A DNA stretch of 64,000 bases from an uncultured bacterium (GTDB lineage: Bacteria; Eisenbacteria; RBG-16-71-46; CAIMUX01): positions 145,793 through 209,792 of the forward strand of contig CAYYQN010000002.1 in the NCBI GenBank assembly GCA_964473865.1, read 5' to 3'. Numbering within the stretch: position 1 is the first letter of the stretch; the number at the start of each line of letters is the position of its first letter. The notes under the pieces were generated by a model. The model was not told where the DNA came from. It saw only the letters and a list, made by a program, of their open reading frames with translations, and did no database searches. Below are positions 39,467-62,948 of this stretch, piece by piece. A program made the position numbers and the translations under genes.

Positions 39467-40439
39467 CATTGGCGGGACTGCCGTGAAGGCCGGCCGGCTC
39501 GGGCCGGAGGGTGCGATCGAGGCGCGCCTGGAGCGGCCGAGCCCGGCGCAAGAGAGGCCGGCGGTGATGGCCGCCCTCCTGGCCGACATGGCCCGAGAGC
39601 TGGGCCTGCCCGCTTTCCGGCCTGCGCCGGCGCCGGAAGAGACGGCGGGCCGCCTGGACACCCCATTCCCTCTCGGAATCGGCTGCGCCGGCCTCGTTGA
39701 TCCCTGGCGGGGCCTGGTGCTCACATCTCCAAACCTGCCCGGCTGGCAGCCGGAAGTCCCGCTTGCCGAGCTGGTGGAGCGGGAAGTCGGGGTCCAGCCG
39801 GTGTTGTTGAACGATGCCAACGCCTTCGTCCTGGCTGAGACCCGGCTGGGTGCGGGGCGGGGTGCTCGGACCGTTGTCGGAATCACAATGGGCACGGGCG
39901 TTGGGGGGGGGCTGGTTCTGGACGGCACCCTCTGGATCGGCCGGCATGGCGCGGCGGGCGAGATCGGGCACGTCCCGCTGATGGTGGATGGCCCCCTCTG
40001 CGTATGCGGGGCCCGGGGCTGCCTGGAGTCTCTCGTCGGCTCGCGCGCCATTCTCGCGCGTCACCGGACGCTCGGTGGATCTCCCGCCCTCGCCCGGAAC
40101 GATCACCCGCAGTGCGCGCCGGCGCCGCTCACGGTGTATCTGCTCGCCCAGCGAGCGGCGGATGGAGACGCCGCGGCGATCGCGACCTTCACCGAGACCG
40201 GACGGCTCCTGGGGCTGGCGCTGGCCGGCCTCACGCAGCTGCTGGATCCGGAACTGTTCGTGGTGGGGGGCGGGATCTCGCGCTCGGCCCCGCTGTTCCT
40301 TCCCGCGGCGCGCCGCGCCCTCGAGGGGGCGGCCATGCTGCCCGCGGCGATGCAACCTCGGGTGGTTCCGGCAGTTCTCGGGCCCGACGCGGGATGGATC
40401 GGCGCGGCGCGAGCCGCGGCCGAAGGGAGCGCGGGGTGA
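39438..40439 (+). CDS. ROK-family sugar kinase (glucokinase-like)
   Basis: ROK N-terminal ATPase motif (LGFDIGGTAVKAG) and the ROK Zn motif (GHVPLMVDGPLCVCGARGCLE). Confidence 0.75.
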   Translation: MGMRPALGFDIGGTAVKAGRLGPEGAIEARLERPSPAQERPAVMAALLADMARELGLPAFRPAPAPEETAGRLDTPFPLGIGCAGLVDPWRGLVLTSPNLPGWQPEVPLAELVEREVGVQPVLLNDANAFVLAETRLGAGRGARTVVGITMGTGVGGGLVLDGTLWIGRHGAAGEIGHVPLMVDGPLCVCGARGCLESLVGSRAILARHRTLGGSPALARNDHPQCAPAPLTVYLLAQRAADGDAAAIATFTETGRLLGLALAGLTQLLDPELFVVGGGISRSAPLFLPAARRALEGAAMLPAAMQPRVVPAVLGPDAGWIGAARAAAEGSAG

Positions 40440-43400
40440 GGGCCGCGCGACGAGCCGCCGCCGTAGTTCTCGTCTCGCTGCTGGCGGCGGCGAGGCCGGC
40501 CCCGGCGCAGACGGAGTCCTCGTCCGGTGCGCCGGTACTCGCCTCTTCCCGGTCCGACGCGACCGGCGCGAGCGCCGCCCCGGCGGACTCCGCCGGGCGA
40601 TCCGTCGTCCGCCCGGCTGCCGCCGATCGCCAGTCCGCGCCGGCCGGCGCAAGCGAACCCTGGTTCATCGAGGGGGAATCGCTGCACGGGACCAGCCAGA
40701 GCGGCACCGAACTGCGCGTGCCGCACATCACCCATGGAGTGCTCGACATCAGGGCCCGAGCCGGGCACATGAGCCCGGACCGCGAGATTCTCTCCCTGCG
40801 CGACTCGGTCGTCATCGCGGACACGGCGCGCACGCTCATGTCCAACGAAGGGATCTACCGCCGGACCCCGCGCCTTCTCGACATGGCCGGCGACGTCCGG
40901 GGAGAGGGGCCCGAGGGGGATTTCCGCTGCACGGACCTCACCTGGGATCGGCTGAGTGGGCGCCTGATCCTGCGCGGGGAGCCGGTCCTGACCGAGCTGG
41001 ACCGCGTCCTCGAGTCCGCGCGCATCGAGTACGACACCGAGTCGCGCCGCGGCCTGGCGTTGGGCCGCGTCCGGATTCTGCTGCTCCCAGACTCGGTGCG
41101 GGCCTTCGGCGAACGCTGCGACTACGACGACCGGTCCGGTCGCTCCGTGCTGACCGGCGAGCCGCGTCTCGTGGTTCCGGGAGGCGCGGATGCGCCCGAG
41201 ATGGTCGTGCGCGCCGACACCCTGGTGTTGCATGAGCTGGATCGGTCCGGTGAGGCGATCGGGTCCGTGCACATCGTTCGGGGCGATCTGCGCACCCGGA
41301 GCCGGCGGGCGCAATTCCGTCTCGAGCAGAATCGAATCGATCTCACGGGTGAGCCGGTCGCGTGGGATCTCGACGGGGACATCCGCGCCGACACCATGTC
41401 CGTACGGGTGCGCGAGCGGAAGGCCGATCAGTTGCGCGCGTGGGGCTCCGTCCGGGTTCGCTATGAGCCGCGCGACAAGGCCGGGGAGCGAAACCTGATC
41501 TTCGGCGACACCCTCACGGCCGGACTCTCCGGAGGCGCGCTTACCGGGATGAAAGTCTACGGGCGCGCCCAGAGCCTCTATCTGCCCGCGATCCGGGACG
41601 TTCTCACCGGCAGCGGGCGAAACCTGAGCCAGGCACGGGAGATCCACGTGTTTCTGCGCGAGGGGCAGGCGCAGTGGGTGGATCTGATCGGGAAGGCCTC
41701 CGGCACCTATCTCTATCCAAGTGACGCCACGCGCCGCCGTCTCCGCGAGCCCGCGATCCTCGATTCCATCGTTCCGGCCTGGGTTCGCGAGCCCGCTCCC
41801 GCGCGGGATCCGGGGGCGGAGCCGCCCCCTCTGAGCGAGTTCCTCCAGGCTTTCGTTCGTGAGCGGAGCCTCGCGTTTCCCGACAGCGGCGGCTCATTCG
41901 ATCAGCTCTTCAATGAACGCGTCGAGTATGAGGCGGACACCATACGTTTCTTCGTGCCGGAGGACCGGATCCGCCTGCAGGGAAACGGCGGGCTGCGCTA
42001 TCGCGAGAGCACGCTCAAGTCGGGCCGGATCGACTACGACGCCGAACGCCGGCTGGTGCTGGCGTTCGAGAAGCCGGAGCTCAGTGACGGTCAGAGCACC
42101 GTGACCGGCGTGAAGATGACCTACCGCACCGACGAACAGGAGGGGATCGTCTATCGCGGCCGAACCGAATTCGACGGCGCATGGTACTGGGGGCGCGAGG
42201 TGAAGAAGCTGCCGGGCAACGAGCTTCTGGTGAAGCGGGGCGACTACACCACTTGCGATCTCGACAGCGCGCCCCACTATCACTTCAGCTCCGGCCGCAT
42301 GAAGCTCATCCAGAAAGACAAGGCCGTGGCCCGACCCGTGGTTCTCTACATCAAACGGATTCCGGTGCTTGCCCTGCCGTACTACATCTTCCCGCTCCGA
42401 AAGGGCCGGCACTCGGGAATCACCATGCCCGAGATGGAGGTGGGCTTCAACCGCAACGCGGGTCGGTTCGTCCGCAACCTCGGGTACTACCTCGCGCTCT
42501 CCGACTACATGGATGCCCGGGCCTGGTTCGACTACTACGAGCGCGGGCCGCGCTACTACCTGAACGGAGAGTATCGGTACCGGGTGCGCTATCTCCTGGA
42601 TGGAAACGTGGACGCATCGTGGCTGCGCGAGACGAACGACTACGGCGGGCGGAGCCGAGGGTGGAGTCTGCAGAGCGCGCACTCCCAGACCCTGGGCAAG
42701 AACGCCACCGCGAAAGTCTCCACCAACTTCACGACGAGTCAGACCTTCCGTGGAGATCAGAACTTCGGCGCCGGGATCGACGAGCGCCTGAATCGAAAGC
42801 TGAAATCCTCGTTGGAGCTGCGCAAGGGTTGGTCGCGAACCAGCTTCAGCGCAGGCGCGACGCGCACCGAGTACCTGGACGAGACGACCGGCTCCGGCGT
42901 GAAGATGCAGGTCGATGGTCCTTATGCGGACTTCACTTTGAACACCGGAGCCTTGGGGCGGGCTCCGGATGCGTCCGGCCGGAGCGGACATTGGGCGGCG
43001 CTCTCCTCAGTGTCGTACGGCACGAACTTTCGCTATCGAACCACCTACGAGCGGCGCTTCAACGGAAAGCGTACGACCGGCCGCGCGTTCCAGCAGAACG
43101 TCAGCCTCTCCGACAACCGCCGGCTGGGCCCCTTTCTGCGTCTGAGCCCCTCGCTGAACGCGAGTTGGGCTCTGTTCGGGCGCGACAACCAGGGTCGTGG
43201 CAATCAGGTCGGAGCCTCCTGGTCCTTCGGCACTTCCGCGTCGAACACGCTGTACGGGACCTATCTCTTCCCGGCGGGGCCCTTGGCCGGGCTGCGGCAC
43301 ATCGTCGAGCCCTCCGTGAGCTGGGGCTTTAGCCCGGAGTTGAAGTCGCTCACCTATGCGGACCCCGCCGACTCCACCGGGCAGAGGCGGCTGGCGCGCT

Positions 43401-44158
43401 TTCCGTCGGTCGGGGGAATCTCGCTCAGCGGCACCAAGCGCTCGGCGCTTTCCCTCTCGGTGAGCCAGCGCGTGCACGCGAAGTGGAAGCTTGGTTCCCG
43501 GGTCGTGAAGCAGGAGAACCTGCTCACCTTCACCACCAGCTCTTCCTATGACTTCCTGGCGAAGTCCGTGCCGGGGCAGCGCACCCGCCGGTTCTCCTCC
43601 ATCAGCAACAGCCTCCGGTTCCGGCCCTGGTCAAGCTTCGAAACGTCGGCATCCGTCAGCCACGACCCCTACCGGCGGGTGCCGCTGTCATTCAGCATCC
43701 GGACCGACGCGACGATCACGGCGGCCACCTTCGCCGGGTCGCGCGACTCCGTGGGCACATCTGAACAAACGTATGGTGAATTTGGGAGCGTCGCGAACCA
43801 GGGACCGGCGAGCAGTCAGAGGCGGTTTCCGGCTTCCCCGGCGACTTCGAATCTCACCTGGTCATCCCAGATCATCCACTCCTACTCCACAACCCGAGGC
43901 GTCTCCACTCCAACCAAAAGCCTGACACTGAATCTCACCATTTCGTTTCGCCCGACGGCAAAGTGGAGGTGCGACGGCAGCGTCTATGCGGACGTTCGCG
44001 AACGGGAGGTCATCTCCCACTCGTTCAGCCTGAATCGCGACCTCCACTGCTGGGAGCTGCGCTTCAACCACCGCACGGTCGGGGGGCGTTCCGAGTACTT
44101 CTTCCACGTGGGCATCCGGCAGCTTCCGGAGGTGAAGTACGAGCGAGAAAGCCGGTAG
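40436..44158 (+). CDS. lptD: LPS-assembly outer-membrane protein LptD-like (OstA family), unusually long with repeated N-terminal OstA-like beta-jellyroll segments
   Basis: GTG at 40436 gives a signal peptide (AAVVLVSLLAAARPAPAQ). The N-terminal roughly 450 aa show repeated OstA/LptA-like segments. The central LptD-like core includes YTTCDLDSAPHYHFSSGRMKL, followed by a long beta-barrel-like C-terminus ending in a conserved aromatic residue. Confidence 0.65.
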   Translation: MRAARRAAAVVLVSLLAAARPAPAQTESSSGAPVLASSRSDATGASAAPADSAGRSVVRPAAADRQSAPAGASEPWFIEGESLHGTSQSGTELRVPHITHGVLDIRARAGHMSPDREILSLRDSVVIADTARTLMSNEGIYRRTPRLLDMAGDVRGEGPEGDFRCTDLTWDRLSGRLILRGEPVLTELDRVLESARIEYDTESRRGLALGRVRILLLPDSVRAFGERCDYDDRSGRSVLTGEPRLVVPGGADAPEMVVRADTLVLHELDRSGEAIGSVHIVRGDLRTRSRRAQFRLEQNRIDLTGEPVAWDLDGDIRADTMSVRVRERKADQLRAWGSVRVRYEPRDKAGERNLIFGDTLTAGLSGGALTGMKVYGRAQSLYLPAIRDVLTGSGRNLSQAREIHVFLREGQAQWVDLIGKASGTYLYPSDATRRRLREPAILDSIVPAWVREPAPARDPGAEPPPLSEFLQAFVRERSLAFPDSGGSFDQLFNERVEYEADTIRFFVPEDRIRLQGNGGLRYRESTLKSGRIDYDAERRLVLAFEKPELSDGQSTVTGVKMTYRTDEQEGIVYRGRTEFDGAWYWGREVKKLPGNELLVKRGDYTTCDLDSAPHYHFSSGRMKLIQKDKAVARPVVLYIKRIPVLALPYYIFPLRKGRHSGITMPEMEVGFNRNAGRFVRNLGYYLALSDYMDARAWFDYYERGPRYYLNGEYRYRVRYLLDGNVDASWLRETNDYGGRSRGWSLQSAHSQTLGKNATAKVSTNFTTSQTFRGDQNFGAGIDERLNRKLKSSLELRKGWSRTSFSAGATRTEYLDETTGSGVKMQVDGPYADFTLNTGALGRAPDASGRSGHWAALSSVSYGTNFRYRTTYERRFNGKRTTGRAFQQNVSLSDNRRLGPFLRLSPSLNASWALFGRDNQGRGNQVGASWSFGTSASNTLYGTYLFPAGPLAGLRHIVEPSVSWGFSPELKSLTYADPADSTGQRRLARFPSVGGISLSGTKRSALSLSVSQRVHAKWKLGSRVVKQENLLTFTTSSSYDFLAKSVPGQRTRRFSSISNSLRFRPWSSFETSASVSHDPYRRVPLSFSIRTDATITAATFAGSRDSVGTSEQTYGEFGSVANQGPASSQRRFPASPATSNLTWSSQIIHSYSTTRGVSTPTKSLTLNLTISFRPTAKWRCDGSVYADVREREVISHSFSLNRDLHCWELRFNHRTVGGRSEYFFHVGIRQLPEVKYERESR

Positions 44159-44451: not shown

Positions 44452-44518
44452 GGGACCCACAAAGCACGGACCCACAACGCGGGGACCCACAACGCGGGGA
44501 CCCACAACGCGGGGACAG
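44452..44518 (+). repeat. Intergenic tandem repeat, 15-nt unit GGGACCCACAACGCG in about 4 copies
   Basis: Three perfect copies and one degenerate copy (gggacccacaaagcac) are visible directly, ending 9 nt before the ATG at 44527. Confidence 0.7.
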
Positions 44519-44526
44519 GAGTCACG

Positions 44527-45912
44527 ATGCGCGTACTTCGCCACTTCGGTCTGATTGTCCTGATCGGACTTCTCGCGGTGTTGGAAGGCTGCGCCGCCTA
44601 TCGCGTGGGCGGCAAGCGGCTGACCAACGCGGACCTGACCATAGCGTCCTTCGGCTCCTTGCAGGGCGAACTCGCCCCCTGTGGGTGACACTCCAGCCAG
44701 AAGGGCGGGCTGGCCCGGCGGGCCAGCGTCATCGACTCGTTGATCGAAGCCCAGAGGCCCTTCATCCATCTGGAGTTGGGTGATTTCGCCAAGATCGACG
44801 ACGTGACCGGGGACTTCGAGACCCGGTTCATCTGGGACATCCTGGAGAAGACCAAGGTCACGGCCATCTCTCCCGGGCCGCGCGAACTGACGATGTGGAA
44901 CACCTTCGAGCAGCTGAAGGCGAGAGGAACGATTCCGGTCGTTTCTTCGAACCTGACCGTCACACGGGGCGGTGCCGAGACTCCGGTCGGCCTGCCCTAT
45001 CAGATCGCTCAGGTGAACGGCATCAAAGTCGGGCTGTTCGCCCTGATGGGAGGAGCCGAACTGGCGGGCGTGCGCGCACCCGACGGGGTGGAGTTCGGGT
45101 TCAAGGACCCGTTCGAGGTTGCCACAGCGCTGGTGCCCAAGCTTCGCCAGCAGGCGGATCTGGTGGTCCTCATGTCGGAGATGTCGACCGCCGACACCGA
45201 CCGACTGCTGCAGGCGGTCCCGGGAATCGGCGTTGCGCTCTACGGGCAGCGCGCAGGATGGGAGGCGGAGGCCCGCAAGAAGGGAGAGACGATCTGCCAG
45301 GAAACCGGCATGCGAGGGCAGTACGCCGGCGAGCTGGTCGTGATCCTCGACCCGGACGGTCGCCTGGTCGACTTCGGCTCCCGGAACCTGGCGCTGGACA
45401 AGGAAGTCCCGGAACAGGCCGATGTCCTGAGACTGGTCAACGAGGTCAACGAAAAGACCAAGACGATGCGTGCGGACGTGCGCAAGGCGCGCGAGGCGGA
45501 AGCGGCAAAGAAGACGACCACCGGCGAGCGCTACCTGGGAGGCGAGAACTGCCAGCGGTGTCATGGCGAGCAGTACCGCTCCTGGCAGGCGACGCCGCAC
45601 GCGCGGGCCTTTGCCACGCTCGACCGGCCGTTGCCGGGCAAGCCGAAGGCCGAGGGATGCGTCTCCTGCCATGCCACCGGCTATGGCGCAGGCGGGTTCC
45701 AGCCCGCTCCCTCGAGTCCTGACCTCCACCCGGCGCAGGCTGCGAGCATCGACTTCAGGAATGTGCAGTGCGAAGCCTGTCACGGACAGGGCACGTTGCA
45801 CCGGCGGACGGGTCGCGTGGAGGTGGCCGAAGCGGTCTGTCGCGGCTGCCACACGCCTGAGTGGTCGCCCGGATTCGACTACGCAGAGGCGATCCAGGCC
45901 GTCAAGCATTGA
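44527..45912 (+). CDS. Candidate selenoprotein: lipoprotein signal + degenerate 5'-nucleotidase/metallophosphatase-like domain + C-terminal tetraheme cytochrome c, read through one in-frame TGA (44686-44688)
   Basis: ATG 44527 gives a signal peptide (MRVLRHFGLIVLIGLLAVLEGC) in the same frame as ORF 44740..45912, separated only by a TGA in the context APCG-TGA-HSS. Downstream is a 5'-nucleotidase-like central region (IKVGLFALMGG...ADLVVLMSEMS...VPGIGVALYG) and four CxxCH heme motifs. Hairpin GCTGGCC-CGGCG-GGCCAGC at 44709-44727 lies 20 nt after the TGA. Confidence 0.45.
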
Positions 45913-46085: not shown

Positions 46086-46565
46086 GTGGATGCATTCGAG
46101 AGCTGCCTGAGGAATGGCCGGCTCAAGCGAGTCGAGCCGGACCCGGAGAAGATCGATAAGGAGATTCGGACGGCGATTTCCGAGTTGAGCCGTGCGCGGG
46201 GCTGCTACGCGGACGGAAACGACGAAGAGTGCGTGATCCAGTCGTACTTTGCCATGAACCGGGTGCTCCGGGTCCTGCTCCAGCGGCTGGGCTACCGCGA
46301 CACGAACGTCTACAGCCTGCTGGCGGGCCTGGACCACCTGTATGTGCAGCCGGGACGCATGGAGAGCCACCTTCTCGAGATCTTGAAGCTGGCCAAGGAT
46401 CAGAAGGACCTGGTGCAGGACGGGGCTCGTTGCGGGCGCAAGGAGACCCGACTGATCCTGAGCGGCGCCGAGGAGACGATGGAGGTTGCGCGGGAAGAGC
46501 TGGCCCTGGGCGAGATACCAGAACTCGATTCCCAGCCCGACGACCTTGAGGAACAGGTCGACTGA
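46086..46565 (+). CDS. HEPN-like helical domain protein (orphan)
   Basis: A 159-aa all-helical protein with a pattern similar to HEPN domains (N-terminal helix pair, conserved Arg/His-containing region GRMESHLLEIL). No adjacent nucleotidyltransferase partner. Confidence 0.35.
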   Translation: MDAFESCLRNGRLKRVEPDPEKIDKEIRTAISELSRARGCYADGNDEECVIQSYFAMNRVLRVLLQRLGYRDTNVYSLLAGLDHLYVQPGRMESHLLEILKLAKDQKDLVQDGARCGRKETRLILSGAEETMEVAREELALGEIPELDSQPDDLEEQVD

Positions 46566-46611
46566 TCGAGCCGGCCCCGGGCTCGTGCGGCTGGCGGACG
46601 GGAGTTCCACG

Positions 46612-49600
46612 GTGACCGGAGGTTCGGCCCGCGCGGGACTGCGGTGGAACCGGACGGACCGCAGTTCCGGCTTCGTTCGACGCTCTCTTTGTCTTGGCCT
46701 TCTCCTGCCTGTGGCCGCCATCCTCATCCCGATCCTGGGCGCGATGGCGGCGATTCCAACGGTCCGGCAGATCCTCCTTGTTGGCGCCGTCTCCAACGAG
46801 TCATTCGGTGGCAGCCGCCCCGCCGTCATCATCTTCAGCTTCGACCCGCCGGTGGAGCGGATCGCGACCGCGGCCGCCGGGATGGTCGAACCCGTTGCGG
46901 TGGCGGTCACCCCCGATCGGCGGCTGTACATAGCCGATGCGGGGGCGGATCCTCTGGGCCTGAATCGCTCCCGGGGTGCCATCTGGCTGGTGGATCCCGC
47001 TGCTCAGGTTGTGGCCCCGGCCCGCCTCGTGGTTGCCAATCAGCTGTTTCGCAAGCCGGCGGATCTGCTGCTGGAGTCGGACGGGAAGATCCTGCTCTTG
47101 GACGGCGATGCGGATCCCAACGAGTGGGGAGGTGCCAACGGCGCGATCTTCCGGATCGATCCCACGACCGGCAACGTGACCGTGCTTGCCGCTCCGCAGT
47201 CCTTCCTCGAGCCGCGCAGCCTGACGGTCGACCTCGACGGCACGCTCCTGGTTGTCGATGAGTCCGCCAACCCCCAGGGCGTATCCGATCCGGCCGGAGC
47301 GATCTTCCGGGTAAACCCCAGCACCGGCGTGGTCACCCTGGAGCGGGTCTTCCGCAGGGGCGATCGTCGCACGATCGTCGCCCCGGTAGCCATGACGGTG
47401 ATCGACCGGGGCGCCCGCCAGGGGGACTACCTGGTCGTGGACCACAATGCGGATCCCCACAATCGTGGCTCGAGTCCGGGCGACGTCTTCTATGTTCCCC
47501 GCGCCGGCGGTGACCCGCAGGACTTCACGCCGACCGCGGTGGCGGAGTTCTCCGAGCCAACGGACGTCATGATGGGCCTGGAGGACGATGTCTACGTTCT
47601 CGATCGGGTCGCCACCTCGGAGCAGGCGCCGCTTGGCCGGGGCGCGGTGTTCCGTCTTCGTCTGAGTGACGGCATGCTCCTGCAGTCGCCCAAGGTCTCC
47701 AGTGCCTTCCGAAACCTGAACACCTTTGTGCAGCTCTCGGGCGCGCAGCTCGACTCCTCCACCGTCACGCATGTGGATGAAACACCAGGGCTGCTGAGGC
47801 CCGGGGACATCGTCACGGTGCGCGCTCGGGTGCGCAACACGGGAACGGCGGATGCGCCTGCGGCCTCGCTCGAGGACACGCTGAAGGTCCAGCTTCAGTT
47901 CGTGCCGGGATCCGATTCGGTGGGGACCGGCCAGGCGTCGTATGATTCGGGCACGCGAAGGTTCTCCTGGTCGGGGCCCATTCCCCGCGGCGGCGAGACG
48001 ACCGTCCGCTTCCGCTTCAAGATCTCCGACTTCGCGATTCCCGGAGTCCGCCTGGATCACCGGATCGTGCTGCGAACCGACCGGACGCCCACCTCCTACC
48101 TCCGGCCGGTCACGCCCCAGCGCGAGTTCGCCGTCGGGTCCAACCTCTTTCTCGACGTCTCCGCCGGGGTCCAGAATTCCGGGGTCATCTACGTTGCGAG
48201 GGCCGACACCACCCGTCCGGAGCCGCTGAGCGAGGGCGGGCTCCTGGTGCGCCCCTCCGACGCGGTCTTCCTCGAAGATGGCCGGCTGGCCGTCCTCGAT
48301 CCGAGCAGCCCGGGCGGGCAGCTGGGTGCGGTCCTGGTCTACAGCTTCAATGCCACCGACACGCTGAGTGTCTTGCTGGCCCTGCGTCGGGAGCTGGGGT
48401 TTGCCCGGCCCTGGGGGCTGGCCCTCGATCGCGATGGTTCGCTTCTCATCACCGACATGGACGCGAATCCACAGGGCTACGCGTACACACCGCGAGATCC
48501 ATTTCGCATGGGCCCCGGTCCGGGGGCGGTATTCCGCTTCGATCCCGCCACCCGGGCGCTATCCGTCGCGGCGGCCAGCCCGGATTTCGAAGAGCCGGTG
48601 GACCTGGCGGTGGACCGGCGCGGGAAGCTCGTGATTGTGGACTACCTCGGCGGCGAGGAGCTGCAGGGAACCTTGTGGGAGATCGATCGGTCGACCGGTG
48701 CGCAGCAGAAGATCGTGCTCGACGCCCTCCGTTTCAAGAACCCGACCGGAATCACGGTCGACGCCGCCGACGATCTCTACGTTACCAGCTATCGCGCAAC
48801 GGACGGCCCCAACCCCGTAGGTGGCGCCGTGTACAAGGTACGTCGGGGAACACCGGTGACCGTCTCCGTCGCCTCGGCGGATACCCTGCTGCGGCAGCCC
48901 GCCGACGTGACCGTCAACCAGACGGACGGCAGCCTGCTGGTGGCGGACAAGGATGCGAACCCCGAACACCTTCCGGAAGCGGACCGCGGCGCGCTCTTCA
49001 AGCTGAATCGGTCCACCGGGGAGGTGAGCGTGGTTTCGGCATCCGGTTTGATGCGCCAACCCGACGGTGTGGTGTCCTTCGGCTGGCCCGAACTGGGCGG
49101 GAGCCGGCTCAGCCTGCGGACACGACTGTCGGGGGATCCTCGTCCGGGCGACACGTTGTGGGCCGACGTGCAGGTCATCAACAGCGGCCTGCGCTCCTCG
49201 CCGCAGACGTTGGCGTCTCTGACCTTCGGGAGCCCGTCCCTGCAGGTGCTTCCGGCGGTTTCCCCGGTCAACGGCCTGAGCATCGACGTGCTGGGCAATC
49301 GGGCCTCGTGGACGGGACGAGTGGCATGGGGAGACACGATGCGCTTCTCGGTGCCCAGCCTCGCGCGCGCCAGTGACTCCTATGGCGGGCTGGCCACAGT
49401 TTCCCTCGTCGTGCTGGGGGGGCGCACGGTCTACTCCTCCAGCGCCTGGCGTCCGGTGCGTTCGGAGTTCCGGCCCAATGACCTCCTGCTGGTGGACAGC
49501 GGCGCCGATCCCAATCGAGTCGGCGTGCCGATCGGCGCCGTCTTCCGACTGGGGGTGGAGGCGCTCGACCCGACCCGCCTCGTCTACACGCACTCCAGCC

Positions 49601-52365
49601 TCGTGGGGCTCTCCGCGGCGGAGTGGACACCAACGGGCGATCTGCTGGTCGCGGCGAGCCGCGGGGACGCCCCGGGGGCGCTGTACCGGTTCGACACCGC
49701 TTCGGGATCCCTGGTGCAGTCGGGGACGGTCGACCGTAGGATCAAGACCCCCGTGGACCTGCTCTACGGTCCGGAGGGCGACCTCCTGGTCGTGGACGAG
49801 GATGCTCAGGAGCTTGGCTTGTCCCTGCCGGCGCGGGGCGCGATCTTCTCGCGGCGGGGTACCGGCGCCTATGAGCTCTTCTGCGCGGACTCGTCGTTCC
49901 GGGTTCCGGCCCAGGCCGCCTTCGGTCCCGGCGGAATGCTCTATCTGGCGGACAGCGAAGCCAACCCGGACAGCGCTTCAGGGAACACCGGAGCGGTGTT
50001 CACGATCGACCCGAGCAGTCGAAAGGTGGTGGGTTGGCTGCAGGACCCGGCGATTCCGCAGCCTTGCGGCGTCACTGTCTATGACGACTCGACCCTCCTG
50101 ATCAGTGATCCGATCGGGGCCACGCCGACCAGCCCGCGTGGCACCCTCATGCTCTACCGGCCGGGCAGCGCGACCCGGCTGGAACCTCTCATCTCCTGGC
50201 CGGGCCTCCGGTCGCTCTGGCGCGCGCTGCGCCATCCCGCCGGCAAGTTGATCCTGCTCGATCGCGAAGGAAAGCATCTCGGCCAGACCGGCTTGGGGTT
50301 GGTGCGGGAGTACGATCCGGTCTCGCGCCGCTTCTCGGAGTACGCCTGGTCGGACTCCTTTGCGGTGATCTCCGACCTGGTGATGAAGCCGGGGCCGATC
50401 GTGACGTTTCCGCGATACGACTGGTCGGACGTGAACGGCCCGCCGATCCACCCGGCGGATCGCCTGAGCTGGCGCGCAGTCCTGCACAACATCGGCGTGG
50501 CCGAGGCTGCGGGGGTGGCCTACTGCGACAGCGTACCGGCAGAAACGGCGGTCATACCCGAGTCAGCCGACGCGGTGGGCGGAGGGGGCACGCCACAGGG
50601 AGTGATCAGTTTCGACGAGAGCCGGGCCCTGCGCTGGTCAGGGACGATTGCGCCCGGCGATTCCGTGGTCATCTCCTACGATGTGCAACTGAATCCGGCG
50701 GTGGCGGAGGGGCGGTTGCTCACGTTTCATCCGACAGTCTCAAGCTCCGGCGGGACCACCCTGGGCCGGACGGCGAAGCTGCAAACCTTTGTCCCGCTGG
50801 AACAGGGATATGCCTATGTCGTCGACCTCGGTGCGGATCCGTTTGGCGAGTCAGGTACCGGGCAGGCCGGAGCGCTCTTCAAGGTCAGCCTCACGACCGG
50901 AGCCACGGTTCCCATGGTCACCAGCCCCCTGTTCCGCCGGCCGACGAGCGTGGCGATGGTGGGAAGCAGTGCGGCGCCGCGATTCCTGATCGCCGACATC
51001 GCCGGCCGCAATCAGCTCAACCGGATCGGGACCCTGTTCCTGTTCGATCCGGCGACCCGCGAGGTGCGAAACATCGGCGGCCACATCGATTTCCGGGGGC
51101 TGGTCAAGGTGCTGCCGTGGACGGAGACGACGGCGTTGGTGCTCGACTCCAAGGCCGATCCCGAGAGCCTCTACAGCGGCACGGTTGTTGGTCCCGGTGC
51201 AATCTTCAAGGTGGACCTGGAGACCGCCGAGATCACGCCGGTCTTCTCGGACACCACTTTGAAGGCGCCCCTTTCCATGGACTGGCTCCAGCCGGGTGTC
51301 CTGGCCATCGCCGACAGCCAGGCGGATCCCAACGGTTCGGGCACTCCGGGAACCGGGGCAATCTACCGCCTGAATCTTGCCAGTGGGGATCTTCAGCTCT
51401 TCGCGACCTCCACCGATTGGCGGACCCCCGGAGCCGTCTGCTCGGACCTCCACGGCGGCCTGCTGCTCGTCGATCGCGACGCCACGCCGTACGAGGCGGG
51501 CGGCGGGTACGGCTCGGTCTTCGAGATCACGCCGCAGGGCACGGTCTCCAAGATCTCCGTGTCTCGCTTTTTCGTGGCTTTGAGGGACGTCCAGGCGGAG
51601 CTGGATGGCGATCCGCTCGTCACCGACGGAGATGCCGATCCCTACAAAGTCGGCGGGGCTCCGGGCGCCCTCTTCCGGTATGTGACCGGCCGGCATGTTC
51701 CGATCGCCTCCTCCCGCCAGTTCGTGGATCCCGGCGGATTCGTGATCTACGGAGACCCGACGCCGGTGGATCTGCTGGAGGCCGCGGCCGACAGCGTCGC
51801 GGAGGGGATCCGGTTGCGCTGGCGGGCGGGGCCCGACGAGAGTGGGGTGCGGTGGCTGCTCTTCCGTCGCACCGCCGGCGGTCCCGACGATCCGGGAGAC
51901 GCCACGCCCGCAGGGTACGATCCGGTTGGGGGGGACCAGGAGTTTCTTGGGGCCGGACCCCACGAGTACCTGGATCGCGCCGTGACCGGCGGACAGTGGT
52001 ACGCCTATCTGGTGGCGCGCGTGGGGACCGACGGGGGTGTCGACTACTCCGCGCCGTTGCTGGCCCACGCTCCCGGGACGGTCGCGCGGCTCGATCTTCG
52101 CCCCGCGGCGCCCAGCCCGTTCTCCGGGCGGACCGGCTTCATCTTCTACGTTCCGGCACCAGGCGGTCGGGTTCGGCTGGAGGTGTTCGACGTGGTCGGA
52201 CGGCGTGCCCGCGTCCTCCACGACGCTCCGGCAGCCCCCGGGCGGCACGCTCTGGGGTGGGACGGGCGCGATGACTCCGGCCGGCGACTCCCGTCCGGGG
52301 TCTATTTCGCGCGACTGAGCCTGGGGGACGACACCCGGACCCGGCGGATCGTGCTCACCCGTTGA
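46612..52365 (+). CDS. Giant (about 1,900 aa) secreted repeat protein: at least 13 copies of a roughly 110-aa beta-propeller-like repeat plus a C-terminal T9SS sorting domain
   Basis: GTG 46612 gives an Arg-rich n-region, h-region and AMA-like cleavage site (LCLGLLLPVAAILIPILGAMA). Recurring units contain hxDxDA[DN]P followed by GA[IV]F[RK][IV][DN]P. The C-terminal roughly 90 aa match the T9SS type-A C-terminal domain pattern (RVRLEVFDVVGRRARVL...HALGWDGRDDSGRRLPSGVYFARL). Confidence 0.7.
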   Translation: MTGGSARAGLRWNRTDRSSGFVRRSLCLGLLLPVAAILIPILGAMAAIPTVRQILLVGAVSNESFGGSRPAVIIFSFDPPVERIATAAAGMVEPVAVAVTPDRRLYIADAGADPLGLNRSRGAIWLVDPAAQVVAPARLVVANQLFRKPADLLLESDGKILLLDGDADPNEWGGANGAIFRIDPTTGNVTVLAAPQSFLEPRSLTVDLDGTLLVVDESANPQGVSDPAGAIFRVNPSTGVVTLERVFRRGDRRTIVAPVAMTVIDRGARQGDYLVVDHNADPHNRGSSPGDVFYVPRAGGDPQDFTPTAVAEFSEPTDVMMGLEDDVYVLDRVATSEQAPLGRGAVFRLRLSDGMLLQSPKVSSAFRNLNTFVQLSGAQLDSSTVTHVDETPGLLRPGDIVTVRARVRNTGTADAPAASLEDTLKVQLQFVPGSDSVGTGQASYDSGTRRFSWSGPIPRGGETTVRFRFKISDFAIPGVRLDHRIVLRTDRTPTSYLRPVTPQREFAVGSNLFLDVSAGVQNSGVIYVARADTTRPEPLSEGGLLVRPSDAVFLEDGRLAVLDPSSPGGQLGAVLVYSFNATDTLSVLLALRRELGFARPWGLALDRDGSLLITDMDANPQGYAYTPRDPFRMGPGPGAVFRFDPATRALSVAAASPDFEEPVDLAVDRRGKLVIVDYLGGEELQGTLWEIDRSTGAQQKIVLDALRFKNPTGITVDAADDLYVTSYRATDGPNPVGGAVYKVRRGTPVTVSVASADTLLRQPADVTVNQTDGSLLVADKDANPEHLPEADRGALFKLNRSTGEVSVVSASGLMRQPDGVVSFGWPELGGSRLSLRTRLSGDPRPGDTLWADVQVINSGLRSSPQTLASLTFGSPSLQVLPAVSPVNGLSIDVLGNRASWTGRVAWGDTMRFSVPSLARASDSYGGLATVSLVVLGGRTVYSSSAWRPVRSEFRPNDLLLVDSGADPNRVGVPIGAVFRLGVEALDPTRLVYTHSSLVGLSAAEWTPTGDLLVAASRGDAPGALYRFDTASGSLVQSGTVDRRIKTPVDLLYGPEGDLLVVDEDAQELGLSLPARGAIFSRRGTGAYELFCADSSFRVPAQAAFGPGGMLYLADSEANPDSASGNTGAVFTIDPSSRKVVGWLQDPAIPQPCGVTVYDDSTLLISDPIGATPTSPRGTLMLYRPGSATRLEPLISWPGLRSLWRALRHPAGKLILLDREGKHLGQTGLGLVREYDPVSRRFSEYAWSDSFAVISDLVMKPGPIVTFPRYDWSDVNGPPIHPADRLSWRAVLHNIGVAEAAGVAYCDSVPAETAVIPESADAVGGGGTPQGVISFDESRALRWSGTIAPGDSVVISYDVQLNPAVAEGRLLTFHPTVSSSGGTTLGRTAKLQTFVPLEQGYAYVVDLGADPFGESGTGQAGALFKVSLTTGATVPMVTSPLFRRPTSVAMVGSSAAPRFLIADIAGRNQLNRIGTLFLFDPATREVRNIGGHIDFRGLVKVLPWTETTALVLDSKADPESLYSGTVVGPGAIFKVDLETAEITPVFSDTTLKAPLSMDWLQPGVLAIADSQADPNGSGTPGTGAIYRLNLASGDLQLFATSTDWRTPGAVCSDLHGGLLLVDRDATPYEAGGGYGSVFEITPQGTVSKISVSRFFVALRDVQAELDGDPLVTDGDADPYKVGGAPGALFRYVTGRHVPIASSRQFVDPGGFVIYGDPTPVDLLEAAADSVAEGIRLRWRAGPDESGVRWLLFRRTAGGPDDPGDATPAGYDPVGGDQEFLGAGPHEYLDRAVTGGQWYAYLVARVGTDGGVDYSAPLLAHAPGTVARLDLRPAAPSPFSGRTGFIFYVPAPGGRVRLEVFDVVGRRARVLHDAPAAPGRHALGWDGRDDSGRRLPSGVYFARLSLGDDTRTRRIVLTR

Positions 52366-58061: not shown

Positions 58062-61000
58062 CTACGGGACCAGGAGCGCCTTTCGCGTCACCACCCGGCC
58101 GTTCGTGCTCAGCCGCTGGAAATACAGGCCGGCGGGCAGGAGGCGGTCGTTCCGGTCGCGTCCGGTCCAGGTGACGGTGTGGGTTCCCGCGGGCAGCACG
58201 CCGTCCAGGATCCGCTGCCGGCAGCGGCCCTGGATGTCGAAGATCTCCAGCCGCGCGGAGGCGGTCCGGTCCAGAGAGAAGCGGATCGGCGCACCCGGGC
58301 GGACCGGATTCGCCATCTCCTCGCCAAAGCCGAAATGCGCGCCGACCTCGTCGGACACGCCGCTGGGGGGAAGTCCGATGTAGACGATCTGGACATCATC
58401 CACCGCCGCCTCCACGGTTGACGGCGTCCCTTCGTCGGAGGCCTGGAATCGGAACCGCATCTGCGTCGTCAGCGTCAGGCGGGAGGCGAGGTCGAACTCC
58501 TGATACAGCCAGGCACGGTTGGACCGGGTCGTTCGCTCGAGGTCGGTCCAGGTCGCTCCATCGTCGTTGCTTGCCTGTACGACCCATACGTCATCCGCCG
58601 CGCCGCCCGTGTTGTTGGTATACCACCTCCAGTAGCGCAACAGCACCGTGCCGTCGAACGCGCAATCGACCCGGGGCGACGTCAAGGTGGTCAGCCCTCC
58701 ATCCACGTCATTCGTGTCCGGGCCGGATCCCGGAGGAGCGTTCCCGGTGACCCAGCAGATGACACCGGGTTCAGGGGTGTGGTCGTCTTCGGGCTGCACC
58801 GGGAACTCCTCGTTCCACGTGCCATTCGGGTCGGCACGCTCCCACAGGCCGCCGGTGGCGTCGTCCGCAGGCGAACCCACGGTCCAACCAGTGTCCGTCT
58901 CGAGATCGTCCTGCCAGGCGGACAGGAGCGGGCCCACCCAGAAGCGGTATGGGATCCCTGGTGCCTGCGCCGGAAGCCTCGTTTCGTTCCCGCCGCCGTC
59001 TTTCACGACCATGTAGTAGTCGATGCGCGTCGTCCAGCTCTGGGCCGGGATCTCGCCGCGGTAGGAATTCGGGCCGTCCGCGACCATGGGAACGATCTCG
59101 AAGGGGCCATCCGAGACCCGGAAGCGAAGCGAGATCTCGGAGAACACCGACATATCCGTCGCCGAGATCCGGACCTGGTGAGCGCTGAGGGTGTCCGGAG
59201 TGGAGACCGGACTCTGCAGGATGCTCACCACCGGGGCCACGATGTCGTTCAAGAGGAGCTGCGGCGCGGCGACGCCCCCCGCGGGAACGTTGACGCTGGC
59301 CGTGTCGGGCGCGAATCCGGCGCGGCTTGCCACCAGGGTATAGCGCCCGGCCAGCTCGGTTCCTTCAAAGGTGCCATCCGGACCGCTGTAATACTGGTGT
59401 CCATTCTCCAGTACCGACACGGTGGCTCCCGGCAGGGCCGCACCTCCCGAAGACGCGTTGCCCACGGTGCCGGAGATCGCGCCGATGAGAATCTCCCGGG
59501 TCGGCACGAACTTGATGGCCCGATTGGCGACGAGCGTGGCCGCTCCCGCGGGGTACTGGTTGAAGTACGTGTAGAGCAGCCCACCGAGGTTGTCCGGCGT
59601 CTCGATTCCGACGGTCGCATAGCCGTCTTGCGAGTCCACGTTGCTCACGGCTTTGTACTGGAACACGATGATGCCATCACCGGTCTCGGTTGTGTGGTAG
59701 GCGGGATCATAGAAGATCGCCTGGACGGTCTCCGTGCTGCTGCCCACGATGTTCCGCATGCGGCTCCATTCAACGACCCAGAGGTGGTTGGCGGCGTCGT
59801 ACCACTGGTAGACATGGCCGGCGGGGCTCGTCACTTCGATCAAGTCGTCCCAGAACACGGCGATGACCCCGTTGGGGCCTCCCGGACTGGGAAGGGTCCA
59901 GTTGCGGTAGTCGGTGAGATAAGTCGACCCCATCGCGATCCACCCGTTGCTGCATACGGTGGCGGTCGTGTAGCTCTGCCCGTAGTAGGTGAACGCGAAG
60001 GGGAGCGTCACGGTTCTCGACTTGTCCTGGTAATCGCCATAGTCGCCGAGTGTGATCTGGCTCCCCGGCCCGCCCAGGCCGGGATCGACCTCGATCCAGC
60101 TGTAGACCGGGGCGTCGGGATACGCGACGTCTGAGTTGTCGTAGGCATAGTACCCGTACTCATCCGGACCGATCGGGTCGGTGCTGCTCCGGGAGCCGAC
60201 GGGAAGCGAGAAATCGACGGTGTCGCTCATGGCCTCGTTGTAGTCGAGGATCATGCGGAGGGCCGCCTCGTAGCCTCTCGGGCAGTCAGAGCGCGCATGA
60301 ACGCTGAAGGGGTGGCCGGTGTTGGCCTGCGAGAGGCCGGGCGACATCTCCGGGTATCCGGAACTGCCCACGGGCACATCCACGTACTCGCTACCGGAGA
60401 GAAGAGTCGCCGTGACTCCGGCGGCGACGATCTCACCGTCGTTGCGGAGGGTGACGGTGAGGGTCACGGTCTCGCCCGGGTCGAAGACTCCCCCGGGGCC
60501 CGCGTCCCCGACCGCGTGGGACGCATGCTGGAGATCGGCGGCGACCACCGGGATCTCGACGACTGAGTGACTCGGGGCCGACCCGTCGGTGGCGTCCAGG
60601 CCGAAGCGAAGAAGATGGCCATGCGGGCAGTCCCCGCGGACCGCGAACCCGAAGTCATCCAGGCTCCAGGCGGCCGCGCCGCCGGCTATCTCTCCGTAGA
60701 TCTCCGCCCCGTCGGTGATCTCCACGTATGGATCGTCCGTGGTGATCTCGGCGGCTACCCCACTTGCGGTCGCGGTGCCGTAGTTGTGCAGCTGGACCTT
60801 CAGCTCGACCGTTTCCCCCGGGTTGACAGAGCCGTCACCGTCTCCTTGGCTTTCGCCGAGACCGTCGTCATCGACCTGCAGAGCCTCGAATCCCAGGAAC
60901 CCGTCGGAATCCGTCACCGGAACATCGGTCAGGTAGGGCCGCCGGTCGTGCTTGGTGACCGTGAGCTTGAAGACGCCCGCCGCCGCCGGGGGCAGGGCCA

Positions 61001-62948
61001 GCTCGCACTGCCCCAGCTCGTCGGTGGTCCCGGTGATGCGAACCTCTCCGCCGGCATCATTCCGATACAGGCAGACGAGCGCTCCGGATTCGGGCGAGCC
61101 GTTCTCGCTCGCAGTGACGGTGAATGAGTTCGCCCCCACCGGCAGGCTGGGGGAGTGGGTGACGCTCACCGGCATCGGGACCGCCGACCAGACGGCGCAA
61201 GCCGGGTCGCCCATGAGGTTGTTCCAGTGGGAGTAGATTGCCACGGAGTTCGGGGCGTTCGACTGGTAGTTCAGGTAGAGGTTCAGCTTGCCCCAGGTGT
61301 GGGCCGCCCCCGTTTCCCAGGCCCCATGGTGCAGCAGGCCCCAGAAGACCCCCAGGGTGAAGCAGTTGTTGAACCGGGTGTGGGTTCCGCTGGTGGCGGT
61401 GCCGATCGCCCCGATGGCCCCCTTGGGTGTGGTTGCCGTGCCGGCCCGGAGGAACTGCTCGGTCCGAGAGGTGCCGCTCGCAAAGGAGCCGGTGTCGCAT
61501 GTGCTCATGCAGCCGAATGGCATCTTCCAGCCATTGGTCAACGTATTGGTGTTGCTGTTGCCCCAGCCGCTCATCCCCTGGATGCCGCGATAGCAGAAGA
61601 TGGTGTCGCCTCGGTTCAATGCCGTGGCCATCTGGCTGACGAAGCTACCGGTGAAGACGGTATCGATCTGCGCGTATCCCAACTGCAGCAGACGGGTCTT
61701 GATCCACTGCTGCACCTGGACACAACTGTAGCCGGAGGCTTGGGGGTCCCCCACGAGGCAGGCCCGCGTATACCAGGCGGTGTCGCTCAGGTACGGCGTG
61801 CTCTCGTACCCGACCGTCTTGGCCACGATCGTCTGGAGCTCAGTCAGGGTTCCGAACGAGAGGCGGCCGATCAGGATGTCGGAGAGAACATCGCCGCCGG
61901 CGAGTTGTGTGTAGGGGTGATCGCCTTCGCCCCCATAGCCGGAGAGGCTCTCATACCAGGTCGCCACGCTGTACGTGCCTCCTCCGTCGCCGGCCAGGAC
62001 CACATACTCGGGCGGAATCGGCCAGTAGTTGTAGGCATTCTGTATATAGGCCTTGATTGCCGTGGCCGACGTGCCGGTTTCGGCCGTAGTCGCGAGCTTG
62101 ACCGGCAGGCCCTGACGCTGCCGCCAGGCCAGCAACGGCTGCAGGTGGGAAACCACGGTCGCGTTGTTGGGACAAATGACCAGATACGTGCCGTGCTGAA
62201 TGGCCTGGCCGCGGGGCGGGCCGCTGTAACCGAGCACCAGCTGCCGATAGATGTTGTCGAAGGATGGAGGGACGGGACGGGAGCGGGATGGCGGCGTGTT
62301 CCGCAGATCCTCTCCGGCGTAGGCAACATCCACCGTCAGCCGCCGCGCGATCAGGAGCGATCCACGCGAGGGGTCGTAGCGCACCGGGGAGAAACGGATC
62401 GGTACGACCCGCAGATCGCCCAGGAGGGCCGGCTCACCCGCCGTGGCCCAGGGCTCGTTCCCGTATCCGGTGCGCGCGTAGGCCGCCGGATCGTAGGCGA
62501 AGGCGGCTGTCTGCTCGTCCTGCATCGGCACCAGCCGGAAGCCGCTGACTTCTTCCTCTTCCTGCACCGTGGCAATCACCGTCACGCCGGCCCGATCCGG
62601 CACCATCACGAACCGACCGAAGGTGGGCAGGACGGGTGCGCCCAGAGCCCCGTCGTCCCCGCCGCCCGGAATTGCCAGAGATTGGAAGGTGATTCCGTCG
62701 ATGTCCAGGTCTTCCACGACCAGGGCGGGAAGAGCGAATTCCGCGCGCAGGCCGGTGGTCGATTGCGAGACGACTCGCAGTTCGGGCAGCGAGCTCTCCG
62801 AACCGGTACCGAGGACGCGCGGTGCGGCGATCGCCCCGTTCGACAACCATCCGGTCAGAGCCAGGCTCACGGCGAGGATGGCGAAAGGCTGGCGACCGTT
62901 GGCGGCTCTGGATGCAGCGCTGGTTGGCGCCGATGGGTCTTGCGGCAT
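58062..62948 (-). CDS. Gingipain-like cysteine peptidase (family C25) multi-domain protein with T9SS C-terminal sorting domain
   Basis: Signal peptide. C25 peptidase core (YLVICPNN...VVLAGDGGG...HPYTQLAGGDVLSDILIGR; Cys region MPFGCMSTCD). Several Ig/CARDB-like and MAM/choice-of-anchor-like beta domains. The last roughly 80 aa match the T9SS C-terminal domain pattern (ARLEIFDIQGRCRQRIL...HTVTWTGRDRNDRLLPAGLYFQRL). Confidence 0.7.
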   Translation of the reverse strand: MPQDPSAPTSAASRAANGRQPFAILAVSLALTGWLSNGAIAAPRVLGTGSESSLPELRVVSQSTTGLRAEFALPALVVEDLDIDGITFQSLAIPGGGDDGALGAPVLPTFGRFVMVPDRAGVTVIATVQEEEEVSGFRLVPMQDEQTAAFAYDPAAYARTGYGNEPWATAGEPALLGDLRVVPIRFSPVRYDPSRGSLLIARRLTVDVAYAGEDLRNTPPSRSRPVPPSFDNIYRQLVLGYSGPPRGQAIQHGTYLVICPNNATVVSHLQPLLAWRQRQGLPVKLATTAETGTSATAIKAYIQNAYNYWPIPPEYVVLAGDGGGTYSVATWYESLSGYGGEGDHPYTQLAGGDVLSDILIGRLSFGTLTELQTIVAKTVGYESTPYLSDTAWYTRACLVGDPQASGYSCVQVQQWIKTRLLQLGYAQIDTVFTGSFVSQMATALNRGDTIFCYRGIQGMSGWGNSNTNTLTNGWKMPFGCMSTCDTGSFASGTSRTEQFLRAGTATTPKGAIGAIGTATSGTHTRFNNCFTLGVFWGLLHHGAWETGAAHTWGKLNLYLNYQSNAPNSVAIYSHWNNLMGDPACAVWSAVPMPVSVTHSPSLPVGANSFTVTASENGSPESGALVCLYRNDAGGEVRITGTTDELGQCELALPPAAAGVFKLTVTKHDRRPYLTDVPVTDSDGFLGFEALQVDDDGLGESQGDGDGSVNPGETVELKVQLHNYGTATASGVAAEITTDDPYVEITDGAEIYGEIAGGAAAWSLDDFGFAVRGDCPHGHLLRFGLDATDGSAPSHSVVEIPVVAADLQHASHAVGDAGPGGVFDPGETVTLTVTLRNDGEIVAAGVTATLLSGSEYVDVPVGSSGYPEMSPGLSQANTGHPFSVHARSDCPRGYEAALRMILDYNEAMSDTVDFSLPVGSRSSTDPIGPDEYGYYAYDNSDVAYPDAPVYSWIEVDPGLGGPGSQITLGDYGDYQDKSRTVTLPFAFTYYGQSYTTATVCSNGWIAMGSTYLTDYRNWTLPSPGGPNGVIAVFWDDLIEVTSPAGHVYQWYDAANHLWVVEWSRMRNIVGSSTETVQAIFYDPAYHTTETGDGIIVFQYKAVSNVDSQDGYATVGIETPDNLGGLLYTYFNQYPAGAATLVANRAIKFVPTREILIGAISGTVGNASSGGAALPGATVSVLENGHQYYSGPDGTFEGTELAGRYTLVASRAGFAPDTASVNVPAGGVAAPQLLLNDIVAPVVSILQSPVSTPDTLSAHQVRISATDMSVFSEISLRFRVSDGPFEIVPMVADGPNSYRGEIPAQSWTTRIDYYMVVKDGGGNETRLPAQAPGIPYRFWVGPLLSAWQDDLETDTGWTVGSPADDATGGLWERADPNGTWNEEFPVQPEDDHTPEPGVICWVTGNAPPGSGPDTNDVDGGLTTLTSPRVDCAFDGTVLLRYWRWYTNNTGGAADDVWVVQASNDDGATWTDLERTTRSNRAWLYQEFDLASRLTLTTQMRFRFQASDEGTPSTVEAAVDDVQIVYIGLPPSGVSDEVGAHFGFGEEMANPVRPGAPIRFSLDRTASARLEIFDIQGRCRQRILDGVLPAGTHTVTWTGRDRNDRLLPAGLYFQRLSTNGRVVTRKALLVP

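Follow-up and report, generated by a model that had tools for sequence, protein, structure and literature searches.

A predicted selenoprotein of the UshA-like 'PCGU' family in Eisenbacteria: a Cys-Gly-Sec loop and four haem sites on a degenerate 5'-nucleotidase-type scaffold

Introduction

Selenoproteins with an UshA-like scaffold have been on record for well over a decade: in the Global Ocean Sampling data, 'COG0737, UshA-like, CxU' was one of the twenty major selenoprotein families, with 76 selenocysteine (Sec) sequences and 92 cysteine (Cys) homologues (Zhang & Gladyshev 2008, PMC2398784); the family appears again in a 2022 review (PMC9312934), and a 2026 review lists it as 'UshA-like protein, NF041198, CxU' (PMC13188914). 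Here we analyze a gene on the forward strand (44527-45912) of a 64,000-nucleotide stretch of contig CAYYQN010000002.1 from the uncultured Eisenbacteria assembly GCA_964473865.1, which in its entirety is hereafter called the window. We propose with high confidence that this is one selenoprotein gene, whose exported and probably lipid-anchored product belongs to the UshA-like 'PCGU' family, with an internal UGA that is recoded with the help of a selenocysteine insertion sequence (SECIS) and a function that might be based on a haem-wired redox mechanism.

An original prediction, made from the letters of the window alone, had read the same gene as a candidate for a new kind of selenoprotein. That claim to novelty does not survive, since both the architecture and the motif are already curated as NF041198, and lists of selenoproteins have included an UshA-like CxU family since 2008 (PMC2398784). 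Judging from the sequence comparisons presented below, the window gene is best understood as a divergent, Eisenbacteria-type member of this known family and not as a novel selenoprotein kind.

Results and Discussion

A single reading frame with one internal TGA

The coding sequence begins with the ATG at 44527, lying 5 nt downstream of a Shine-Dalgarno-like AGGAG read from the sequence (44517-44521, + strand), and runs over 461 codons plus a stop, with Sec predicted at codon 54; these limits follow from the translation, the match to NF041198 and the alignment with an orthologue that is 81% identical (L001). The N-terminus, MRVLRHFGLIVLIGLLAVLEGC, displays an n-region with positive charges, a hydrophobic core, and Cys22 in a lipobox-like L-E-G-C context, together making up a predicted signal peptide at 44527-44592 (+), and at the equivalent site homologues read LLAGC, LLSGC, LALGC or LPGC; the predicted product is probably an exported lipoprotein. 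Immediately 5' of the ribosome-binding site we observed a 15-bp tandem repeat, GGGACCCACAACGCG (4.3 copies, 92% match, 44452-44516), which is missing from L001.

A single TGA interrupts this frame. It occupies 44686-44688 and stands between ...GELAPCG and HSSQKGGLARRASVIDS, the latter segment being also rendered as HSSQKGGLARRA. The residues A-P-C-G-TGA are numbers 50-54 and present the Pro-Cys-Gly-Sec/Cys motif of NF041198; the triplet Cys52-Gly53-Sec54 (TGT GGG TGA) occupies 44680-44688 (+), in a column that is conserved in homologues. Past this codon the frame stays open until the TGA at 45910-45912 and encodes four CxxCH motifs, at 45550-45564, 45658-45672, 45769-45783 and 45838-45852 (residues 342, 378, 415 and 438). 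The original prediction had located the signal-peptide segment, the single TGA, the downstream frame and the four CxxCH motifs correctly. The earliest possible start codon 3' of the internal TGA is the TTG at 44740, and the protein's most conserved stretch falls among the 17 codons that separate the two; hence, the HSSQKGGLARRASVIDS segment can be translated only by reading through the TGA. Coding composition is strong on either side, with a GC content at third codon positions of 0.82 upstream and 0.90 downstream, and, ordinary gene junctions aside, no other in-frame TGA in the window is flanked in this way on both sides; a scan of the in-frame TGAs in the window likewise yielded no other convincing selenoprotein gene.

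These features bear directly on the possibility of two separate products, namely a 53-residue lipopeptide ending at the UGA and a cytochrome body initiated at an internal start such as TTG 44740. The public data speak for such a division, in that they hold the window gene only as an unnamed ORF (open reading frame) of 390 residues from TTG 44740, plus a short upstream ORF. However, the invariant HSSQKGGLARRA falls between the TGA and the first available start and is nonetheless conserved at the protein level, and the homologues with Cys in place of Sec are continuous proteins bearing a signal peptide. Moreover, c-type haem is attached to CxxCH motifs in the periplasm, by cytochrome c maturation, yet a body with four such motifs that began at the internal start would have no signal peptide. 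We therefore regard two products as very improbable and favor one gene with its UGA decoded as Sec, as originally proposed for the two ORF pieces, a reading that is supported by the conservation of the TGA column, the downstream hairpin and the coding constraint discussed next.

Conservation of the TGA column and the alternation of Sec and Cys

A scan for homologues over one genome per species recovered 80 loci. At 79 of these, at least one copy carries TGA at the aligned column, giving 81 such copies in total, and the context of the Sec forms across the loci can be summarized as [E/A/N]-P-C-G-TGA-x(3-5)-G-G-[LV]-A-R. TGC or TGT occupies the column in six copies, of which five lie, as second copies, within a few kb of a TGA copy and the sixth is the sole copy at its locus, and the full-length database homologues P0061-P0083 read PCGCHTPKGGLARRA (PCGC). 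Thus, the column holds either TGA or a Cys codon, and an in-frame UGA that aligns with Cys in homologues and is conserved in orthologues is a general hallmark of a selenoprotein gene. The alternation amounts to a classical Sec/Cys pair. The closest database homologues (44-81% identity) are all fragments of 350-400 residues that cover ~82-85% of the query, and were evidently cut by gene callers at the same TGA.

Alignment with L001 extends over 1386 nt without an indel, and the differences at codon positions 1/2/3 number 6/3/19 upstream of the TGA and 54/41/175 downstream of it. This indel-free and third-position-biased divergence indicates that both sides of the TGA are under purifying selection in one frame. 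Hence, a pseudogene, in which a nonsense mutation to TGA would have silenced what was once a Cys-containing cytochrome gene, appears highly improbable. It is true that PCGC homologues exist, that TGC or TGT is a single step from TGA and that gene callers split the gene at this point; but a pseudogene would account neither for the constraint on both flanks nor for the 81 copies, spread over several phyla and 79 of the 80 species-level genomes, in which TGA stands in this very column, nor for a covarying hairpin after the TGA that is confined to the TGA forms. The chance that an error of sequencing or assembly has masked a sense codon such as TGC or TGT is close to nil: single-base errors do occur in a metagenome-assembled genome (MAG), from which the window probably stems, but an independent Logan assembly of SRR12133404 (L081) is identical in sequence, including the TGA, and L001 and all other orthologues have TGA as well. 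The pseudogene and the sequencing error had both been named as alternatives in the original prediction; the TGA column, the hairpin, the constraint and the independent assembly effectively exclude them.

The homologues also display some variation in copy number and at the motif itself. Two loci each have two tandem Sec-form paralogues (L005, at 5000 and 6175; L006, at 4982 and 6145), and five others (L051, L062, L074, L075 and L079) have one Sec form and one Cys form ~4 kb apart; such Sec/Cys pairs within one genome offer natural material for comparison. An Eisenbacteria-type copy in L007 (~3140-3250) reads A-S-G-TGA, so that the Sec codon is kept and the Cys two residues earlier is missing; a Cys-Sec selenenylsulfide is therefore not universal in the family. 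Three full-length proteins at 27-30% identity (P0100, P0111 and P0113) have neither Cys nor Sec at the motif (…VASP[AP]xxAGGLARRAT…) and retain the architecture of a nucleotidase-like and a tetrahaem part; they probably form a separate paralogous subfamily.

A SECIS-like hairpin downstream of the UGA

Beginning 20 nt past the TGA, the RNA can form the hairpin GCUGGCCC-GGC-GGGCCAGC (44709-44727, +), which overlaps the codons for L-A-R-R-A-S and is composed of an 8-bp stem with a 3-nt GGC loop, equal to the 7 bp and 5-nt loop CGGCG of the original description. Its energy is -15.5 kcal/mol, a stability attained in 2 of 200 dinucleotide shuffles, and the spacing from UGA to loop is 28 nt. Published criteria for a bacterial SECIS call for an upper stem of 4-16 bp, an apical loop of 3-9 nt, a minimum free energy no higher than -7.5 kcal/mol, a G within the first two positions of the loop, which is typically N1-G-[G/U]-N-N2, and a UGA-to-loop distance of 16-37 nt (PMC13188914); the window hairpin lies within these limits on every count. 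With a genome of 68% GC, the fold of the region 44680-44760 as a whole is not significantly more stable than its shuffles (z = -1.2), the hairpin alone being distinguished by its stability, and it is the comparative evidence that carries the argument for a SECIS.

This evidence comes from an alignment of 69 Sec-form sequences, 63 of them distinct. The eight stem pairs are formed in 88.9% of its cells, a figure that falls to 30-53% if the 3' partner is displaced by 1-3 columns. In the lower three pairs there are 31 double, compensatory changes (e.g., G-C, A-U and C-G), and the observed covariation scores were reached in 0 of 500 column shuffles. Further, the core GCCCGG[A/C]GGGC is found in 66 of 79 Sec forms and in none of the six Cys forms, which encode the same GGLARRA peptide through other synonymous codons. 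Since the Cys forms are without the core despite specifying the same peptide, the RNA structure appears to be selected only where a UGA needs to be recoded. A family-specific covariance model built from the Sec-form alignment had this hairpin as its only strong match in the window, the next best reaching 14 bits at E ~1. No SECIS family of Rfam was matched in a scan at gathering thresholds, and a permissive scan of 44500-44900 returned only a chance long non-coding RNA at E 8. With structure, covariation and the Cys-form control all in agreement, the hairpin, which the original prediction had taken for a SECIS, would indeed act as one.

Three Sec forms, from MAGs labelled Thermodesulfobacteriota, Syntrophaceae or Deltaproteobacteria (L054, L056 and L063), are devoid of the GCCCGGMGGGC hairpin. 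Their stem, GCUUGGC...GCCAAGC, comes earlier and carries a GGUCUG loop similar to the SECIS loop of E. coli fdhF. The SECIS thus appears, from these sequences, to have been remodelled within the family.

A further alternative is that the UGA is read as an amino acid other than Sec, that is, as Cys or Trp by near-cognate decoding or through a lineage-specific reassignment. It could draw on the fact that no Sec machinery was found in the window. Yet TGA is the normal stop of 26 of the 31 confident window genes, this gene included, so the genetic code is not reassigned; in addition, the conserved hairpin, whose apical loop contains GG and lies 28 nt beyond the UGA, bears the signature of SelB-dependent recoding, and the family is curated as a selenoprotein family. 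We consider such a non-Sec decoding very improbable and retain Sec as the residue at position 54.

Assignment to the NF041198 family

When Sec is written as Cys, the best NCBIfam match of the protein is by far NF041198, 'UshA_like_PCGU, UshA-like (seleno)protein' (E 2.2e-64, 217.9 bits), a name that already spells out the motif seen here. Two stretches make up this match, with residues 283-453 aligning to model positions 350-519, and since both stretches of the protein align, the model covers the nucleotidase-like as well as the multihaem part. Scores against the same model vary between lineages: 210-268 bits for Eisenbacteria-type proteins (L001, L003 and L009), 254 bits for a Methylomirabilota-type one (L075), 284-291 bits for Fibrobacteraceae (L029) and an unclassified MAG (L023), 315 bits for Gemmatimonadota (L013) and 350-361 bits for Thermodesulfobacteriota/Syntrophaceae (L054 and L063). 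The nearest relatives by homology likewise point to Candidatus Eisenbacteria (Eiseniibacteriota) as the probable source of the window.

Domain architecture and the fate of the former catalytic site

The N-terminal body is a 5'-nucleotidase-type metallophosphatase-fold domain (~residues 37-320; 44635-45486, +), as is apparent from both profile and fold matches. In searches of the PDB, the family profile recovered 3ivd at E 9e-34, with 2z1a, CD73 and UshA also matched and SoxB (2wdc) at E 1.8e-20. An AlphaFold model of the Cys homologue P0061, computed with a 60-sequence alignment, attained a mean predicted local distance difference test score (pLDDT) of 88.9 and a predicted template modelling score (pTM) of 0.83, and its best Foldseek matches (E ~1e-22) are 5'-nucleotidases and SoxB, whose N-terminal metallophosphatase domain superposes on the first ~310 residues of the model. 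A single-sequence AlphaFold run on P0066 gave a pLDDT of 34 and was uninformative. The PDB and fold alignments end at about residue 310, with no C-terminal nucleotide-binding domain found beyond this point. What follows instead is a tetrahaem cytochrome c554-like domain (45529-45909, +), recognized by its four CxxCH motifs, which are invariant or nearly so in the family, by Pfam PF13435 (Cytochrome_C554) at residues 342-420 (E 3.7e-12, 47.5 bits against a gathering threshold of 20.8) and by the match of the family profile to cytochrome c554 in the PDB (1bvb, E 3e-21).

The dimetal site of the parent fold is built from the motifs DxH, GD, GNH[ED], H and GH. To follow their fate, we took the corresponding columns from 85 aligned family sequences, with the register set by the PDB and NCBIfam alignments. 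The DxH of motif I is D-[VI]-K in the family, with D in 61 of 85 sequences, and S44-L-Q46 in the window protein. For the GD of motif II the family has D83 in 81 of 85 and D86 in 58 of 85, and the window protein E83 and D86. The GNHE of motif III has become G-E-R-[DE] in the family and G117-P-R-E in the window protein, its Asn and His being lost family-wide. The His of motif IV is kept as H218 in 57 of 85 and is E218 in the window, and that of the GH in motif V is kept as H241 in 58 of 85 and is Q241 in the window. The window protein therefore does not present the dimetal-site motifs. Against this, P51, C52, G53, the Sec/Cys column, G60-G61 and R64-R65 vary little or not at all across the 85 sequences, though for C52, G53, Sec/Cys and G60-G61 this holds partly by construction, since the sequences were chosen by a motif requiring C-G-[C/U]...GG; the L007 copy with S-G-U is not among the 85.

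The Sec54 residue lies 8-10 residues past motif I (residues 44-46), in the loop that enters the GGLAR helix. The original prediction had put it at the first metal-ligand motif itself; the loop is the same, but Cys52 and Sec54 are ~8-10 residues downstream of the DxH position. The other structural suggestions of that prediction fared better, in that profile, fold and ligand columns all agree on a 5'-nucleotidase-type body with most of its metal ligands replaced, and the above-threshold PF13435 hit and the 1bvb match on a C-terminal tetrahaem module. A functional 5'-nucleotidase or SoxB-type hydrolase was considered and rejected, the metal ligands being missing. With the ligands, the catalytic His and the C-terminal domain all replaced, phosphoesterase or SoxB-type hydrolase activity is unlikely, and the protein is, to judge from these columns, not a phosphoesterase.

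Points that weigh against the proposed reading

Several observations pull the other way from an UshA-like selenoprotein with the mechanism outlined below. First, selA, selB, selD and tRNA-Sec were not found in the 64-kb window or in the scanned flanks of related loci, and no tRNA-Sec was found in the flanks of 60 related loci, a negative that is uninformative for the genome as a whole. Second, the searched literature gave no experimental selenium incorporation, haem loading or activity for any member of the family, and neither a characterized family function nor selenoproteins of Eisenbacteria. Third, the score of 217.9 bits lies below the curated cutoff of 275 for NF041198. Fourth, the protein that was modelled is a Cys homologue only 33-35% identical to the window protein. 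Finally, this clade changes D to S44, D to E83, E to P118, H to E218 and H to Q241, and the chemistry of the Eisenbacteria-type branch may, on these substitutions, differ from that of the core family.

A plausible mechanism and its implications

Briefly, we advance the following scenario. The UGA at 44686-44688 would be recoded to Sec by the standard bacterial route, with the presumed participation of SelA, SelB, SelC and SelD; SelB carrying Sec-tRNA(Sec) would be recruited by the hairpin at 44709-44727 and would insert Sec at this codon. The Sec translocon might then export the protein, which would receive a lipid at Cys22 and, once in the periplasm, its haems, as established knowledge of cytochrome c maturation would suggest. 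The product is, on the comparative evidence, a degenerate 5'-nucleotidase/SoxB-type fold that bears a Pro-Cys-Gly-Sec loop and in which a four-haem, c554-like domain takes the place of the substrate-binding domain. More tentatively, the four c-type haems could pass electrons to or from a Cys52/Sec54 center of a periplasmic redox enzyme, this center being possibly a selenenylsulfide couple or a metal ligated by Cys and Sec. As for the substrate, a sulfur or selenium compound seems, because of the kinship to SoxB, the most plausible class and a reasonable first guess.

One may go further and speculate that throughout the UshA-like family catalysis takes place at a Cys/Sec redox site that is wired to the haems and built on a dead phosphatase scaffold, with the adjacency to LptD described below hinting at a role at the outer membrane. 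This is suggested by the fact that the Eisenbacteria-type branch keeps the Cys-Gly-Sec, the start of the GGLARR helix and the four haems and has hardly any of the ligands left; we hold this broader proposal to be doubtful. If it were true, the haem-wired Cys/Sec site would constitute an uncharacterized class of periplasmic selenoenzyme, and the hint from LptD would point to an outer-membrane role rather than to bulk respiration.

Public gene calls truncate the window gene and its close relatives at the TGA, and the NF041198 model misses the Eisenbacteria branch at its cutoff. Once the TGA is read as Sec, an entire clade of a family that is widespread over several phyla regains a signal peptide and the invariant active-site loop. 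Which residues this divergent branch has kept, and which it has lost, also narrows the likely chemistry to Cys52/Sec54 and the haems.

Genomic context

The upstream neighbor of the Sec gene is a giant outer-membrane protein of the LptD family (40004-44158, +; Pfam LptD_2, E 8.8e-55). An LptD_2/LptD_N gene of ~1300-1440 residues is found directly upstream and on the same strand at 52 of 80 related loci, or 53 of 81 when the window is counted, including MAGs labelled Eisenbacteria, Krumholzibacteriia, Fibrobacteraceae and Gemmatimonadota; the exceptions are mostly contigs cut short upstream or copies labelled Thermodesulfobacteriota/Methylomirabilota. A block of a Mur ligase, a ROK-family gene, LptD and the Sec gene recurs across several lineages. 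This linkage could be a functional one or merely inherited gene order. The window genes are housekeeping in nature (ClpB, AspRS, SerRS, pyrimidine biosynthesis, LptD, MnmA and others).

Directly 3' of the Sec gene is an ORF of 159 residues (46086-46565, +) with no Pfam match, which is called as a gene in L081 too and is not conserved beside the family in other lineages. Farther along, three large secreted-type proteins have a FlgD_ig-like C-terminal domain in common, namely a 1959-residue NHL-repeat/DUF11 protein (46486-52365, +), a 1650-residue C25 (gingipain-like) peptidase (58062-63011, -) and a further partial ORF (63163-63999, -); this may be a common sorting or anchoring domain of the three.

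Comparison with known systems

Other cytochromes with Sec bear a general resemblance to the window protein: ExtKL (NF040886) and MccSep (PDB 9wt8) are, like it, periplasmic or outer-surface multihaem c-type cytochromes with Sec. They differ in having another architecture, with no nucleotidase-like domain, and only marginal similarity in the CxxCH region (E 0.0015 and 0.029). Membership in either was rejected, as the similarity is confined to the CxxCH level. Family 2 of the UshA-like selenoproteins (NF049981, CxxU) is comparable in its nucleotidase-like scaffold and a Sec near the N-terminus, and aligns weakly and locally with window residues 37-77 (E 1.4e-6; 27.9 bits against a cutoff of 140); it differs in its length of 262 positions, in the lack of a cytochrome domain and in being listed with CxxU and not CxU.

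The two halves of the protein have their own kin. With UshA, CD73 and SoxB it shares the N-terminal fold and the landmarks GG[LV]AR, xDxGD and saN, whereas in the window protein other residues stand in place of the dimetal ligands and of the catalytic His in GNHE. Relative to these proteins, the substrate-binding C-terminal domain has also given way to the tetrahaem domain and a Cys-Gly-Sec loop has been added. Cytochrome c554 of Nitrosomonas europaea (PF13435) has the same four CxxCH haem sites at similar spacing; that protein, however, is a free-standing electron carrier of ammonia oxidation, whereas the version in the window is a C-terminal module fused into a larger lipoprotein.

It is NF041198 that combines these features. 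The window protein has in common with it the Pro-Cys-Gly-Sec followed by GGLARR, the nucleotidase-like N-terminal domain, the C-terminal multihaem domain and the Sec/Cys column, as well as the SECIS lying over the A-R-R-A codons, as in most Sec forms (66/79); the upstream LptD neighbor, too, is present in relatives that pass the cutoff of the model, such as L023 and L029. It departs from the family in its length, with 461 residues against a model of 519 positions, and in having replaced D44, D83, E118, H218 and H241, which most family members keep.

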